IMG/VR virus record: IMGVR_UViG_2925897562_000003
DNA length: 46,293 bases
Origin: a virus
Taxonomy: Duplodnaviria; Heunggongvirae; Uroviricota; Caudoviricetes
Direction: 5' to 3' (one strand)
The notes beneath the pieces were generated by a model. The model searched no databases, was not told where the DNA came from, and saw only the letters and a program-made list of their open reading frames with translations. The position numbers were made by a program, and so were the translations under genes. Positions 27,919 to 34,254 of this stretch are shown here, one piece after another (position 1 is the stretch's first letter; each line of letters opens with the position of its first letter).

Positions 27919-28400
27919 AAACAGACCTCACGCTCAATCTCACGACGAGTCATCAGGCCTTTCCATTGCTTACCGCCAGCGTATGCCCAGCGACGTAGCT
28001 GGTCACATGCGCCCTTGATATCGCCCTGGTTTATTTTGCGAAGAAGAGTAGATGTTCTGAAATTGCCTGCGCCCACGTTATAGACGAACGAGTAAAGAGC
28101 GCCGCGCGTTGTTTCCGGTATATCGACTTTGATGTACGGGTTAATTTGTCTGGCTACCGTGGCAAGGTCTTTATTCAGGAGGGCTTTGCATTCTGCTTCG
28201 GTATACGTTTTACCGGGAATGATGTCTTTTCCTGTATGCCCGTGACATACAGTCCATACGCCAACGATATCTTTGTATGGTATGTAACTGACACCTTCCA
28301 GGCCATCGTCACCACTTGGGCCAGTGATTAACACTGATGCTATAGCAATTGCTCCGCCACCAATAGCAGCAGCAACTGCTTTTCGTAATGATGGAGGCAT
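27903..28400 (-). CDS. R: SAR endolysin (phage 21 R-like lysozyme)
   Basis: 165 aa; N-terminal Gly/Ala-rich SAR-like segment [16 protein letters not shown]; matches my recollection of R21. Confidence 0.85.
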
Positions 28401-28615
28401 TATTCACCTCTCGCAGCCTTGCGCTTATCTTCTTTAATCTTGAAATAAAGGTTTGTCAGGTACGTCAGCAGGCCAAATACCAGACTACCCAGCACACCTA
28501 TTGCCGCCCACTGTGAGGGCGTGACTTTATCGAGCAACTGTAAAAACCAGTACCCGGCACTACCTGCTGAGGTGCCATAGGCGACACCCGTTGTTAACTT
28601 ATCCATGGATTTCAT
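28400..28615 (-). CDS. S: Pinholin S (phage 21 S-like) with dual start MKSMDK
   Basis: [26 protein letters not shown]...[22 protein letters not shown]; two in-frame ATGs (28615 and 28606) as in S21-71/S21-68. Confidence 0.8.
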
Positions 28616-28682
28616 AACCCCACCTCGCAGATGCGGGTGCTGTGTAATGGAAATAAAAAGGCCACCTGACGTGGCCACCAGA

Positions 28683-29735
28683 TTATTTCCCCACCAGCTC
28701 GTTTATCTCTTTCACTGTCTGGTTAAACCGCTCTGACTCAAGCTCAACACCTAAGGCCCGACGCCCCAGCGCCATTGCTGCTTTTATTGTGGAACCGGAT
28801 CCCATAAAAAAATCAGCAACCAGATCACCAGGTCGACTACTGGCATTGATTATTTGCCTGAGCATATCCACCGGTTTCTCACACGGATGTTTACCCGGGT
28901 AGAACTGAACGGGTTTATGCATCCAGACATCGGTATAAGGCACGGAGACTGATACGGAGAAATAGCGCCGGAGAGATTTAAACTCATCCAGCAATTCAGA
29001 ATATTTGCGATTCAGTGAATCATAAGATGCCACCAGCTGGTGGTGTGGTTGTTCCAGTTGTTGTTCCTGAAACTTCTCTGCCGCTATACGGGAAAACAGT
29101 GCCTGTAACTTCCGATAGTCAGCCTCATTCGGCAACTGCCACTGACTGGCACCAAACCAGTGGGAAACCATATTTTTCTTACCTGTGGCTTCGGCAATTT
29201 GTTTTGCCGTTATACCCAGTTCGGCACGAGCATCCCTGAAATACGATATCAGCGGTGCCATTATGTGCTGTTTGAGTTCCCTTTCTTTTGCCGCATAGCC
29301 GTCACTTTTGCCGCGATATGGCCCCTGGTAATGTTCAGCAAACAGAACGCGCTCTGTGGCAGGAAAATATGCGCGCAGACTTTCTTTATTACACCCATTC
29401 CAACGTCCGGACGGCTTCGCCCAGATGATATGGTTAAGCACGTTGAAACGTTCACGCATCATGATCTCAATATCAGATGCCAAGCGATGCCCACAGAACA
29501 GGTAAAGGCTTCCGGCAGGTTTTAACACCCGCCAGAACTGGGCCAGACAGTGGTCCAGCCACTTAAGGTAATCTTCGTCCCCTTTCCACTGATTGTCCCA
29601 ACCGTTGGGTTTCACCTTGAAGTAAGGCGGATCGGTAACAATCAGGTCAATGGAATCATCAGGCAGGGACTGAATAAAATGCAGGCAATCAGCGTTGATT
29701 AAATCAACACTGTTTATTTTTACAGTATTTTTCAT
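28683..29735 (-). CDS. Orphan DNA amino-methyltransferase (N6-adenine or N4-cytosine; DPPY motif)
   Basis: IVTDPPYF catalytic motif near the N-terminus plus C-terminal FFMGSGST AdoMet motif; no partner endonuclease adjacent. Confidence 0.8.
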
Positions 29736-29885
29736 GGATCAGTAAGCGTAACTCTGGTAGGCTCACTCTGCTTTTGCGCTAAAGCAGTGGGCCGTGGTTC
29801 GCTTGTGACCAGTAAGCATGAGCGAATGGCTGGCAGGTGCTACCAACACCCACCAGCCGCCCATTTTCACAGCAGGAAACCGCCA

Positions 29886-30113
29886 TTACTGGCAGCGTCT
29901 GAATTTATTCCCGTACCCGCCGTTATCCTTCGCCAGACCCGCCAGAACTAACTGAGTCAGTATTAACTGGCACCGGGCTTCGCTTACTCCGGTAGTTCTC
30001 GTCATCATGCGTGGCGTTACCCACTTGTCAGCAGGTAAAAAATAAAGGACTGCGGCGGCGGTTTCTGTCATATCTTGCTGTTTTAGCATGTCTTTTTCCC
30101 TTCTGGTTAACAT
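29886..30113 (-). CDS. Hypothetical small protein (75 aa)
   Basis: ORF only; no family recognised. Confidence 0.35.
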   Translation of the reverse strand: MLTRREKDMLKQQDMTETAAAVLYFLPADKWVTPRMMTRTTGVSEARCQLILTQLVLAGLAKDNGGYGNKFRRCQ

Positions 30114-30353
30114 GACATACCAATAACTCTTGTCTAAAAAGCCAGCAAGATAAAAAGTCAGTATTCACGACCACCAGCGTGTTTACTGTACTGCACCAGG
30201 TTTACAGGTACAAAAAACCGCTCAGCGGCGGGTTTAAGTTGTGTGGCGAAGTAACCACTCTTAACACGATATAATACTTTTTGCGTACGCGTTAGGATTT
30301 TTATAAACTATGCGTCCCCATTCTCGCTATCTTTAGTCGGTCCTGGAATACAC

Positions 30354-31280
30354 ATGAAAGTTAGAAGCATAGGATTTACAATAAATAACAATAACAAAAA
30401 TATTAATACCGTTGACGTAATGAATGCTTTTATCAACGCATCAAACAGAGAACACAGTCGCACAGACTATACTCGTAAAATTCTCATTTCGGATGTGAAT
30501 GATTTCTATTATGGATTAGTTGTCACATTCAGAAACCAAAAAAAGAACTGTAAGTCGCAATTTGTTGATGGTAAATTCCAGCTTAAAATTGAAGATCTTC
30601 AAGGAAGTGACAAACTTGCTAATTTCAACTTTTTCTTAATTAAAAAATCTAATCTTTCTGGTCTCTATATGTATCACCACGGTTCATGCAGTCTGAACAC
30701 TCTCTTTTCTCATTTAGAAACAATAAGTAATGAATTTATCAGAAATCAAAATAAAGAAGAAATAAAAAAACTTGGTGATAAACCAAAACAAAAAGAAGTA
30801 ACTGCAATAAATAAAAAATACAAAGAAAGACTGACTTTCAGCCTTATGACAAATAAAAACAACATTCAGAGTGTTTTATGTCAATTCAAAGAGATTAAAA
30901 GCACAAGCTTTAAATTTAATTATATAGATTTTAAAGGTGGACCAATGACTGCGCTTGAACAATTTGTTAACACCACCACAATAGATATGAATTTTAATTC
31001 TAGCGACAGAACAAAAGTGCAACAACTATCTCAGAATCTTTCAAATATTTATAATTCTATGAGTGGAGTTGCTAAAGCACAGGTTATTGCAGTAAACCAT
31101 GCAGGAATAGAAAAAACCATTGATTTTATGAACTGCCCTGTTTTTTTTGAAACATACGATTTCGATATAATTGCCGATAAAGTCAATGGATTGACAAACG
31201 ATAATTATACAACAAACCCTGTTTTTGATATGATAAAAGAAGAAATGCTGAACGGGACGAATAAAAATGCCTTTATATGA
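30354..31280 (+). CDS. Hypothetical protein (308 aa), visibly AT-rich gene, Asn/Lys-rich; first gene of the accessory cassette
   Basis: Long uninterrupted ORF on the strand opposite to the late genes; codon usage clearly unlike the surrounding phage genes (runs such as aataacaataacaaaaatattaat). Confidence 0.6.
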   Translation: MKVRSIGFTINNNNKNINTVDVMNAFINASNREHSRTDYTRKILISDVNDFYYGLVVTFRNQKKNCKSQFVDGKFQLKIEDLQGSDKLANFNFFLIKKSNLSGLYMYHHGSCSLNTLFSHLETISNEFIRNQNKEEIKKLGDKPKQKEVTAINKKYKERLTFSLMTNKNNIQSVLCQFKEIKSTSFKFNYIDFKGGPMTALEQFVNTTTIDMNFNSSDRTKVQQLSQNLSNIYNSMSGVAKAQVIAVNHAGIEKTIDFMNCPVFFETYDFDIIADKVNGLTNDNYTTNPVFDMIKEEMLNGTNKNAFI

Positions 31281-31411
31281 ATGGCTAATAAATAAAAGAT
31301 TGAGGTATCAGTACCTTACACTGCTTGCATTCTCGATCCTGGCATTGCTTGCACTTTACCTATTGTACAGAAACACACCTAAAGTAAGTGTTAACTTTTT
31401 TGATTTTTATC

Positions 31412-32481
31412 CTTGAATTGTCAAACCAAGTGCAACGATTTTTTGAAGTAAACTTCATAAGGTGTTTTCCAACCTAAACATTTACGTGGTCGTAAATTCA
31501 GTTTATTGATCACCTGTTGAATATCAACTTCGCTCCACTGATTGATGTCTTGGTGCTTCGGAAAGTATTCACGAAGTAACCCATTTGTATTTTCATTCGT
31601 TCCCCGTGTCCACGGTTGATGCGGCTCGGGGAAGTAAAATTCTACACCCAGTGCTTCTGTTACCAAACGATGTTGGGCAAATTCTTTACCACGGTCTGGC
31701 GTAATTGACCGCAATATATGTGAATCCAGCAATTCAATCATGGCTTTTTGGACTGCTTCGGCTTTTTTGGCAGGAATTTTCTTCACCAACTCAAAACGAC
31801 TTTTGCGTTCCGTCAGCGTCAGCAAACAAGCTCCACCCGCTTTACCCAGTACGGTATCGGCTTCCCAATGTCCAAAGCGACTGCGATTTTGCGCCGAAAT
31901 GGGACGGTCGTTCAAATGGTTGGATATCTGAATTTTGCCACGTTTTTCATGATGATTTTTTGTATGCCGTGTTTTGCCTTTGTGGCGCAGTTTGCGACTG
32001 GCTTTGCGTTCGCCTATATCAAACAACCCTGAATAAATACCACGATAAATGGTTGAATAACTAATGGATAATTCAGATTTTTCCAATTTTAATCGTGCGC
32101 TGATTTGTTCGGGCGACCAGTTTTCTGTCAGAAACTTTTCTTGCACCAAATTGAAATATTCAGGCTGCTCTAATTTGCGCTGTGCTTTGCTATTTTGACG
32201 ATGCTTCAAATAGCTGTTTTGTGCGTTCGTTGCACTGTAGCTTTCTAGAGCGTGTCGTTTCAGCTCGCGAGAAATGGTGCTGGAGCTACGTCCCAGTGCT
32301 TTGGCAATTTCTGCTTGTTTTTTGCCCTGTGCGAGTAAAATCATTATCTTTTCTCGCTCGTTTATTGTAAGATGTCGGTAGGAAGTACTCATCATTTGGA
32401 AGTGGTTTTTGTGTGGAAACAAAATTATATTCTAGTTGATGAGTACTTCTTTTTTTGTTGCACTTGGATTGTAAATTCAGC
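31412..32481 (-). mobile_element. IS30-family insertion sequence (about 1.07 kb), possibly ISApl1-like
   Basis: Single transposase ORF flanked by imperfect roughly 25-bp terminal inverted repeats (left TGAATTGTCAAACCAAGTGCAAC, right reverse complement TGAATTTACAATCCAAGTGCAAC); exact ends and target duplication not resolved. Confidence 0.8.
31421..32344 (-). CDS. IS30-family transposase (DDE); 307 aa from MILLAQ, ORF track extends to 32422
   Basis: N-terminal HTH (AEIAKALGRSSSTISRELKR), catalytic region HWEADTV...TPDRGKEF...TRGTNEN typical of IS30 transposases. Confidence 0.85.
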   Translation of the reverse strand: MILLAQGKKQAEIAKALGRSSSTISRELKRHALESYSATNAQNSYLKHRQNSKAQRKLEQPEYFNLVQEKFLTENWSPEQISARLKLEKSELSISYSTIYRGIYSGLFDIGERKASRKLRHKGKTRHTKNHHEKRGKIQISNHLNDRPISAQNRSRFGHWEADTVLGKAGGACLLTLTERKSRFELVKKIPAKKAEAVQKAMIELLDSHILRSITPDRGKEFAQHRLVTEALGVEFYFPEPHQPWTRGTNENTNGLLREYFPKHQDINQWSEVDIQQVINKLNLRPRKCLGWKTPYEVYFKKSLHLV

Positions 32482-32871
32482 TCATAAAAACTTACGAGGC
32501 TATCTCTTCTCCGGTTTTATTTCCGTGGGCTCATTTTTATTGAGCCTGCATACCTTTGTCATAATAAATTTACGCGATAAGGTTTTTGCAACTCAGGAAT
32601 ATAAGGAAATTTATAGCATTGCCACTGGTATACCTATTGACAAAATCAATGATAGTGTACTTTATAAACCTTTAGACAATTTATCCTCATTTATTAATAC
32701 ATCAATATTATGTTCTATCACAACAGCAATTGCACAATTCACTATTGGGCTTTCAACTAATTTATATGCATGCTTATTTTGCGTATGGCTTGCAATACTA
32801 ACGGTATTTCTTTTATTACATTGCCTCATCATAATCAGACAAAATATTAAAATTTTATTAAAGCAACAGAG

Positions 32872-32894
32872 AAAAAAAGGGGGGTAATCCCCCC
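32872..32894 (-). terminator. Strong rho-independent terminator immediately after Q (GGGGGG-ATTA-CCCCCC then TTTTTTT on minus strand)
   Basis: Perfect 6-bp G/C stem with 4-nt loop and 7-T run, 5 nt downstream of the Q stop; the loop also holds the stop codon of the plus-strand disrupted gene. Confidence 0.6.
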
Positions 32895-32899
32895 TAATA

Positions 32900-33241
32900 T
32901 TACAACATTGAAAGCACACCATCCAGAAAACCAAGAGCTGTTTGCAACTCTTTTCTTATTGTCCCATCAGAACACTTCTGCTTCTTTGCAATAGTTCTTA
33001 GTGAGATGCCGATAACAAAATGAGCAATAACCAACTCATACTCTTCGGGCTTATATTTCCGCAATCGCGCAACACAGCTGTCAATCATGATTCCTTCATC
33101 ATCATCGCATTGTTGACGTGTTTTCTTTCCATGAGGTAGTAAACCTTTAAACCCTGCAGCAACAGGCTGCCAGTCCACACCACTGTTATCTGCTGCAGCC
33201 CATGCACCCCAGCGGTCCAATACTTCATACATATCACGCAT
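32900..33241 (-). CDS. Q: Late antiterminator Q (QuuD / phage-82 Q-like)
   Basis: LDRWGAWAA...AAGFKGL...CDDD...CVARL resembles E. coli QuuD as recalled; start taken at ATG 33241 (ORF track uses an upstream TTG at 33256). Confidence 0.7.
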   Translation of the reverse strand: MRDMYEVLDRWGAWAAADNSGVDWQPVAAGFKGLLPHGKKTRQQCDDDEGIMIDSCVARLRKYKPEEYELVIAHFVIGISLRTIAKKQKCSDGTIRKELQTALGFLDGVLSML

Positions 33242-33258
33242 CAACTTTCTCCACAAAA

Positions 33259-34254
33259 TCAGGCCAGTACGCCAATTGCCAGTGCACGATCGATAAAACG
33301 AAATATCAGCTCCAGCTGGGAGCCATACTTCTCTTCAAATGCCACGGTATCCGCATGCAGCTCGTCGTGATGCTTTCTGCACAAAGGCAACACAAAGAGG
33401 TCATGCGCTTTTGTAGCCATTCCACCCTGACCGTGACCTATCAGGTGGTGGGGATCATCAGCAGGTTTTCCACAACATGCGCACGGCTGCGTCTTAACCC
33501 ATCGCGTGTACTTTTCATTAACCCAGCGGCGACGTTTGGGGCGTAACATAAAAGACTCCGGCGACTCCGGATCCACTTTCAGCGCCAGCACCTTTTTCGC
33601 CTTATCCTGGATGATGCTGGTGGCAGGAACCGAAGGCATAAGGTCACTTTCCCGGGTAACAGACGGCACAACAGGCTTCGGTAATCTCAGTGCCTTACGG
33701 GCTGCACTTTCCGGTAAGGCATCCGCCAGATCATTACGAATCAGCCACCAGCACAGTTCCGGCATTGTCACAACGTGACTATCATCAAAACCGAGATCCC
33801 GACGCACAACAGACAACACCCAGCGGGCACTGTTATCCGTTGCCATTGATTCCAGCCGTTCCGTGAACTGATCGCGCAGCTGGTTATCGCAGTGCCAGCA
33901 CAAACGGATTGCGCCCGGAGCGTGTCGCATTGTTGTCATGTTCTCGCTGTGCCAGTCGGAATGAGGCCACTGGCAGCCTTTTTCACGAAGTAACCAGCTT
34001 TCAAGACATTCCACGCCACCAGCACGACGGATCACTGCCTCATTGCGGAACACGGCCCGAACGGCAGGATCATCCGCCAGCGGTTGTGATGCCGCCGGAA
34101 CGGCACCACTGGCGAAAGATGAATAACGTTCCGGCTCAGGCTCCAGCAAGACACGCCCCTGCATAAACAAGGGCATCAGCTCTGAACCTGGTCTGAACAA
34201 TACGATCCCCATACGCGGGGCAATTTCAGGGGTCAGTAGTGCTCTCACGGTCAC
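33259..34254 (-). CDS. DUF968-family phage protein with C-terminal HNH/zinc-finger-like motif
   Basis: C-terminal CACCGKPADDPHHL...CRKHHDELH; typical nin-region position upstream of Q. Confidence 0.55.
   Translation of the reverse strand: MTVRALLTPEIAPRMGIVLFRPGSELMPLFMQGRVLLEPEPERYSSFASGAVPAASQPLADDPAVRAVFRNEAVIRRAGGVECLESWLLREKGCQWPHSDWHSENMTTMRHAPGAIRLCWHCDNQLRDQFTERLESMATDNSARWVLSVVRRDLGFDDSHVVTMPELCWWLIRNDLADALPESAARKALRLPKPVVPSVTRESDLMPSVPATSIIQDKAKKVLALKVDPESPESFMLRPKRRRWVNEKYTRWVKTQPCACCGKPADDPHHLIGHGQGGMATKAHDLFVLPLCRKHHDELHADTVAFEEKYGSQLELIFRFIDRALAIGVLA

Follow-up and report, generated by a model that had tools for sequence, protein, structure and literature searches.

The window analysed here, the whole 46,293-nt stretch of DNA of a virus (Duplodnaviria; Heunggongvirae; Uroviricota; Caudoviricetes; IMG/VR:IMGVR_UViG_2925897562_000003), carries on its minus strand a gene for an antiterminator Q (32900..33241), and this analysis concerns the hairpin at the stop codon of that gene, the inverted gene cassette behind it, and the late promoter (pR') on which Q would act. 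The gene encodes 113 amino acids (aa) from an ATG, or 118 aa from an alternative TTG start at 33256, and genes for DUF968, KilA-N and RusA proteins are located upstream of it on the same strand. Its product matched Pfam PF06530 (Phage_antitermQ, E=2.5e-45) and, weakly, the sequences of the Q21 structures 6P18 and 6JNX (E=2.6e-4). It was identical to the Q of the sequenced phage mEp460_4F5 and shared 55-58% identity with cdtI-type Q (Q of cdtI itself, 57%), 45-47% with DLP12-type Q (K-12 QuuD, 45%; phage 1W, 47%), 44% with the Q of VT1-Sakai (Q933 type) and approximately 26% with Q21; by sequence, this Q is a member of the Q21/Q933 family. The Q of phage SfII (L004, 1267-1578) lacks 13 residues between WGAW and AAGF that all its relatives have.

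On the minus strand, TATTA comes directly after the Q stop codon TAA (32902-32900), and then GGGGGG (32894-32889), ATTA, CCCCCC (32884-32879) and TTTTTTT (32878-32872). The stem, separated from the stop codon by 5 nt, has seven pairs (six G-C and one A-U) closing a loop of ATTA, and the U7 tract stands directly 3' of it, so that the element (32872..32895, minus strand) resembles an intrinsic terminator of the Q strand in two respects, a GC-rich stem (5 bp or more, with a loop of 3-8 nt) and a U-tract. The TAA that lies in the loop, at plus-strand positions 32885-32887, is the stop of an open reading frame (ORF, 32372..32887) ending in K-K-G-G, the residues encoded by the A7 run and the G6 arm. 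All of this agrees with the first-pass annotation, which had noted a G6/C6 hairpin and minus-strand T7 run at 5 nt past the Q stop, with the stop codon of the plus-strand gene in its loop. In a scan of 28-36 kb the hairpin ranked first among the terminator-like sites, with a minimum free energy of -14.1 kcal/mol as minus-strand RNA and -15.1 kcal/mol as plus-strand RNA. The pattern G6N4C6T5 occurred once in the window and in none of 100 shuffles; the z-score against dinucleotide shuffles was only -1.5, because such shuffling leaves homopolymer runs intact. Conservation was assessed in the window and 26 loci carrying this cassette. All 27 sequences possessed the hairpin, in a length-polymorphic form: 19 had a G5-A allele (-11.4 kcal/mol), five, including the window, had the perfect G6, and the remaining three had shorter C or T runs, while a T-run of six or more was retained in every one of the 27.

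Downstream of Q, two AT-rich genes (GC content about 0.30) for proteins of 308 aa and 182 aa are located on the plus strand. The first gene of this inverted cassette (30354..31280) encodes the 308-aa protein, which has a RexA fold. The second, in the position of RexB, is represented in the window by a 5' fragment of 48 codons (31267..31411) and a 3' fragment (32482..32887), as determined by alignment to the uninterrupted locus of Escherichia coli MB06171. In intact loci the 182-aa gene overlaps the end of the 308-aa gene, directly downstream of it, and its product has three hydrophobic stretches (approximately residues 12-37, 56-78 and 135-174). The two proteins of the intact cassette have the accessions WP_000868396 and WP_001131905. 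The cassette thus has a RexA/RdgC fold within a larger protein and a small multi-pass membrane partner encoded directly downstream. By sequence, the cassette proteins did not belong to the RexA or RexB families of Pfam, PADLOC or NCBIfam: the 308-aa protein and the disrupted ORF of the window had no match in Pfam, and the 308-aa protein and the intact 182-aa protein had none in PADLOC or NCBIfam. Since a RexA-fold protein is followed directly by a membrane partner, as rexB follows rexA, we read the cassette as a Rex-like exclusion pair, the fold match being observed and the defence function being one that the pair would have.

The two gene fragments are separated by ISApl1, an insertion sequence (IS) of the IS30 family (1070 bp, 31412..32481, minus strand), which splits the membrane-protein gene after codon 48. 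Its boundaries and its 2-bp target duplication (31410-31411 and 32482-32483) were set by alignment to the empty site. The transposase matched NCBIfam IS30 (E=3e-92), and the copy was 100% identical over 1070 bp to annotated copies, including plasmid ISApl1. None of 5,426 complete E. coli genomes had ISApl1 at this site, and the order of Q, cassette and late promoter block (see below) was found uninterrupted in phages mEp460_4F5 and vB_EcoS-569R4 as well as in many complete E. coli genomes; because these two are sequenced phages, the order was taken to be compatible with viability. By these alignments, only the ISApl1 copy, and not the cassette, is a recent insertion, and it has probably inactivated the cassette in the window.

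Beyond the cassette, a conserved pR'-type block of 84 nt (30211..30294, minus strand) was recognised by homology to VT1-Sakai, whose depositors annotated a late promoter (TTTACG-16-TATCAT), a qut (Q-utilisation) site and a terminator where Q ends. The block sequences were TATCGTGTTAAGAGTGGTTACTTCGCCACACAACTTAAACCCGCCGCTGAGCGGTTTTTTGTACC in the window and TATCATGATAAGAGTGGTTACATTGCCACGCTGCTTAACCCGCCGATGCGCGGGTTTTTTTGTACC in VT1-Sakai, and the annotated stretch aligned with the window block base for base from the -10 hexamer through the hairpin. On this alignment the window would have a -35 hexamer TAACGC (30294-30289), a 17-bp spacer, a -10 hexamer TATCGT (30271-30266), a transcript start near 30259, a leader hairpin (30258-30243) and a tR'-type hairpin with a 4-bp GC stem (30231-30218) followed by T6 (30217-30212); the palindrome GCGTACGC, followed by an A-tract, is located at 30290-30283. 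In the Sakai Shiga toxin (Stx) phages, the pR' start has been mapped by differential RNA sequencing (dRNA-seq) at 258 nt upstream of tR' (Sy et al., PMC7547250). Counted back from the second annotated terminator, these 258 nt place the VT1-Sakai start approximately 7 nt past TATCAT; the distance was used instead of the published start coordinate (2,926,201), which, in the numbering of NC_002695.2, lies 135 nt further downstream than expected. This offset in the Sakai (Sp15) coordinate is probably a record-version difference. An upstream -35-like sequence, nTnACA, was also considered as the -35 of pR' and rejected, being 25 nt from the nearest -10.

The invariant core of the block consisted of TAACGCGTACGCAAAAA-N-(8-9 nt)-TGTTAAGAGTGG; a short leader came next, and after it a GC hairpin with a T-run. 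In the window this core motif is present at a single place (30268-30240). From the Q stop to the start of the nearest homolog of the promoter block there are 2,605 nt (1,533 nt without the IS), that is, pR' does not follow Q directly in the window; what is found upstream of the late genes is a promoter, a short leader and a terminator homologous to a characterised pR'. No minus-strand promoter-like site was detected in 32900-33260, a region including the 3' half of Q, or in the 5-nt gap. The first-pass annotation had placed the Q-dependent late promoter and qut downstream of the cassette, within 29736-30353, and the homology to VT1-Sakai together with the co-occurrence of the block with the Q type speaks for that placement. 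The same annotation had considered the weak hairpin there unconvincing as a tR'-like element; this judgement did not hold, as the hairpin corresponds to the conserved first tR'-type hairpin of the promoter family, present in the window as a weakened allele (GCGG versus GCGGG). The comparison that it had proposed with the pR' region of phage 21 revealed the same layout of elements as in the window. These sequence data support a location of the Q-dependent late promoter of the window at approximately 30294-30259 on the minus strand.

To place the block relative to Q, we used 80 IMG/VR loci encoding this Q at 87-100% identity. Of 81 IMG/VR loci, 78 extended far enough downstream. The block was present in all 78, as well as in phages SfII, Stx2a_1447 and mEp460_4F5, at a distance of 611-2415 nt past the Q stop, and it never adjoined Q. 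Stx2a_1447 and SfII, which have a closely related Q and other cassettes, have no more than a short segment past the cassette in common with the window, and BLASTP detected no similarity between the 308-aa protein of the window and the cassette proteins of these two phages. The block is located directly before the holin gene in SfII and upstream of stx2 in Stx2a_1447; it was also found in K-12 DLP12, phage 1W, cdtI, Stx2d_112808 and Yersinia ruckeri. The Y. ruckeri prophage (L099, 4001-5831) carries the same cassette, with 49% protein identity, between a PF06530 Q and methylase and holin genes, and keeps TAACGCGTACGCAAAA, the 17-bp spacing, a TAnnnT hexamer and AAGAGTGG. With the copy being at the same place, the linkage of Q and cassette spans genera.

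While the leader was common to all types, the sequence between -35 and -10 changed with the type of Q. The spacer element was GCGTACGC with the Q type of the window (window, IMG/VR loci, SfII and Stx2a_1447), GCGGTCCGC with the cdtI type (cdtI, Stx2d_112808 and VIT_AJPSC), TACGTACGTA with the DLP12 type (1W, PhiR34_1, K-12 and POCJ13) and TACGATCGTA with the Q933 type (VT1-Sakai). Across these four Q types, the helix-turn-helix region of Q differed in parallel with the spacer element. These type-specific spacer palindromes may be Q-binding elements (QBE), as would be expected from the spacer-located QBE of lambda and phage 21.

Between the Q stop and the -35 hexamer, the Q lineage of the window carried at least 13 unrelated types of cargo, with a GC content of 0.30-0.38 and all genes opposite to Q. 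They include Kiwa (KwaB, E=9e-144), PDC-S33 (RelA/SpoT-like), PDC-M53 in SfII, pairs of NA37 and a membrane protein, and an ion-channel-like protein. A GC hairpin of its own, located within about 30 nt of the Q stop, accompanied 13 of 14 cargo types and also cdtI; the better U-tract of these junction hairpins faced toward Q, toward the cargo or both ways, as in cdtI, and the last few codons of Q varied with the type of cargo. A cargo-free state is found with a cdtI-type Q in Stx2d_112808, in which the block starts about 10 nt past the Q stop. A rule that all cargo at this site is inverted fails across the family, since POCJ13 (DLP12-type Q) has a co-oriented ORF in the gap, and it holds for the Q lineage of the window only. 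The proposal of the first-pass annotation that the cassette had been inserted between Q and its target promoter is correct as to the position, the cassette lying between Q and pR'; the event was not a singular one, as the cassette is but one alternative among 13 or more inverted cargos. Judged from these loci, the interval from the Q stop to the -35 is a recurrent cargo site, which in the Q lineage of the window always holds an inverted, self-contained cassette.

Past the block, the first gene on the minus strand is a small conserved ORF of 67-75 aa (29886..30113), followed by a DNA methyltransferase gene (28683..29735; Pfam N6_N4_Mtase, E=1e-42) between pR' and the lysis genes. A second terminator-like hairpin, GGCCACGTCAGGTGGCC and then TTTTTATTT (28660..28676, minus strand), is located just upstream of the first lysis gene, encoding an S21-type holin (28400..28615, minus strand; Pfam Phage_holin_2_1, E=3.6e-35). 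In phage Ayreon a terminator has been annotated at the equivalent place. Should the weak first hairpin be leaky, as its homolog is in Stx phages, lysogens could express the methylase.

The explanation that best accounts for the locus as a whole, and that we consider quite probable, is that the junction hairpin acts as an intrinsic terminator at the convergent junction of the early-right operon ended by Q and the inverted cassette, and that Q acts on a separate pR' beyond the cassette; termination, transcript start, Q-binding site and defence activity are all predicted parts of it. In the lysogen, the cassette would be transcribed from its own promoter toward Q and end at the junction hairpin, which probably also marks the 3' end of the cassette transcripts. 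Transcripts leaving Q would stop at the same hairpin, in the canonical orientation of stem and U7, and this stop would limit antisense transcription and polymerase collisions over the cassette. The late genes would need no read-through from Q, which is a diffusible protein; as Q would act in trans on pR', late expression would be independent of the stop at the junction. After induction, Q would load onto and modify polymerase started at pR', 2.6 kb away, where a short leader of about 48 nt would otherwise end at the weak hairpin and T6 (30231-30212). The modified polymerase would pass this hairpin and the stronger second terminator (28676-28660), so that transcription would extend over the small ORF, the methylase gene and the S21-type lysis genes.

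Several observations weigh against this explanation. The -35 hexamer TAACGC is poor, and a consensus scan called no promoter at the block. TATTAT (30276-30271) is another candidate for the -10; with it, TAAGAG would stand at +2, in the manner of the phage 21 pause element. TAAGAG resembles TAAGCT of phage 21 and fits only with this alternative -10. No convincing -10-like, sigma-dependent pause element was seen, the window having TACTTC where VT1 has TACATT (about +7). The tR'-type hairpin of the window has only four GC pairs, and its homolog in Stx phages leaves some transcripts unstopped, the mapped RNA being 258 nt long (PMC7547250). RNAalifold found no compensatory pairs for the leader hairpins in 23 leader sequences; the hairpin variants stand in different registers and were merged by the alignment, and the case for the hairpins therefore rests on the presence of a GC hairpin and T-run in each variant and not on covariation. 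At the junction, the plus-strand tract 3' of the hairpin is only UAAUAUU, which makes a bidirectional role doubtful, and the junction terminator would be ignored in lytic growth if early transcription were antiterminated. Pfam recognised no N-type antiterminator next to cI in the relative mEp460_4F5.

We regard it as rather unlikely, though worth weighing, that the junction hairpin is mainly the cassette's own 3' end, serving as its terminator or mRNA stabiliser, with the Q-strand T7 a by-product of the Lys-Lys-Gly-Gly codons and any stopping of Q transcripts incidental. The A7 run and the G6 arm are indeed cassette coding sequence, and the stop codon lies in the loop; furthermore, the hairpin differs from one cargo type to another and thus travels with the cargo and not with Q, and in some cargo types, such as the L037 class, the better U-tract faces the cassette strand. 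However, the canonical U7 of the window is found on the Q strand only, and at least six T were kept on that strand in all 27 copies despite the homopolymer polymorphism. The two roles are, moreover, not mutually exclusive.

A perfect plus-strand TATAAT (30270-30275) overlaps the -10 region of pR' and points toward the cassette. No -35 goes with it; it could serve the cassette as a divergent promoter. The reverse hexamer pattern TAnnAT is retained in cargo-bearing relatives and not in VT1-Sakai. Both features would suit a block that, instead of being a late promoter, drives or regulates the cassette or encodes an independent small RNA. This is very improbable, for the block stands directly after Q with no cassette in VT1-Sakai and Stx2d_112808, it stays the same from one cargo to the next, it is always followed by late, lysis or stx genes, and an Rfam scan of 28300-33400 yielded nothing relevant, with no family matching the block; a divergent cassette promoter could also coexist with pR'. 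Least credible of all is that the junction hairpin is tR' itself, in which case the 3' end of Q would contain the promoter and qut, and polymerase modified by Q would read antisense through the cassette to the lysis genes. The promoter of VT1-Sakai does overlap the Q stop codon, so members of this family may have a promoter there, but 32900-33260 has neither a minus-strand promoter-like site nor similarity to the conserved block, the Q end is conserved only as coding sequence, the hairpin is different in every cargo type, and the true homolog of the VT1 promoter region, with the single core motif, lies beyond the cassette.

The preferred explanation, a junction terminator with Q acting in trans on a distant pR', can be compared with known systems. 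The Stx phages VT1-Sakai, 933W and H-19B have a Q of the same Pfam family, homologous -10, leader and first hairpin, and late, lysis or toxin genes downstream, as in the window. They differ in that their pR' overlaps the Q stop and their cargo, stx, is located downstream of pR' and co-oriented with it, whereas in the window Q and pR' are kept apart by inverted cargo of 2.6 kb, or 1.5 kb if the IS is subtracted, and the spacer is GCGTACGC in place of TACGATCGTA. Closer in arrangement are DLP12 of K-12 and PA-2-like phages such as 1W, in which Q, one or more junction hairpins, inverted lysogen-expressed cargo, a pR' block and a holin gene occur as in the window. In K-12 DLP12 the order is quuD, the inverted nmpC split by IS5, the block (L094, 4695-4778) and essD, so that the cargo is IS-split as in the window, and the predicted start is on the plus strand near NC_000913.3 577,226-577,229. 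The DLP12 lysis operon is controlled by a Q-type antiterminator according to work cited in PMC7918800. Unlike the window, DLP12 has a porin gene as cargo and not a Rex-like pair, a Q with 45-47% identity and the spacer TACGTACGTA.

In phage 21, whose elements were taken from an annotated record with annotation from published experiments, Q is of the same Pfam family, and -35, QBE in the spacer, -10 and start occur in the same order as in the window, with a pause element past the start and, within about 50 nt, an intrinsic terminator at which a leader RNA of about 50 nt ends. It differs from the window in its Q (about 26% identity), in its QBE, a direct repeat (ATTGAGCA/AATGAGCA) in contrast to the candidate palindrome of the window, and in its pR', which starts 7 nt past Q. 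As for the cassette, lambda RexA/RexB likewise comprise a RexA/RdgC-fold protein of about 300 aa and a small multi-pass membrane protein, encoded in the same order in a lambdoid prophage (PMC11077077). Unlike lambda rex, the cassette of the window has no detectable sequence similarity to RexA or RexB, sits between Q and pR' and not beside cI in the immunity region, and has its membrane gene disrupted. In kind, the arrangement is thus an ordinary one, a terminator at a convergent junction combined with a DLP12-like separation of Q and pR' by inverted cargo.

The gap between Q and pR' looks like a hot spot for defence cargo. On a wider and more tentative reading, to which we give somewhat less than an even chance, the gap would be a dedicated, orientation-constrained landing site in prophages of the Q21/Q933 family, each cargo being expressed in the lysogen and insulated against early transcription by a convergent hairpin of its own, and the pair of the window would be an uncharacterised exclusion system; the cargo counted under this reading comprises Kiwa, the PADLOC candidate systems PDC-M53 and PDC-S33, porins and Rex-like pairs.

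The Q type of the window is common but unstudied, occurring in numerous E. coli prophages and in some Stx2a phages, and these results suggest where precisely its late promoter, its candidate Q-binding element and its tR' are located. That Q and its target promoter would be separable by kilobases of unrelated opposite-strand DNA bears on prophage annotation, on the prediction of Stx and lysis gene expression and on phage engineering. The gap between Q and pR' may also serve as a practical marker for lysogen-expressed cargo, having yielded in this sample Kiwa, two PADLOC candidate systems and a Rex-like pair not recognised by the libraries, and, if the landing-site reading is true, the site could be mined systematically for new defence systems.
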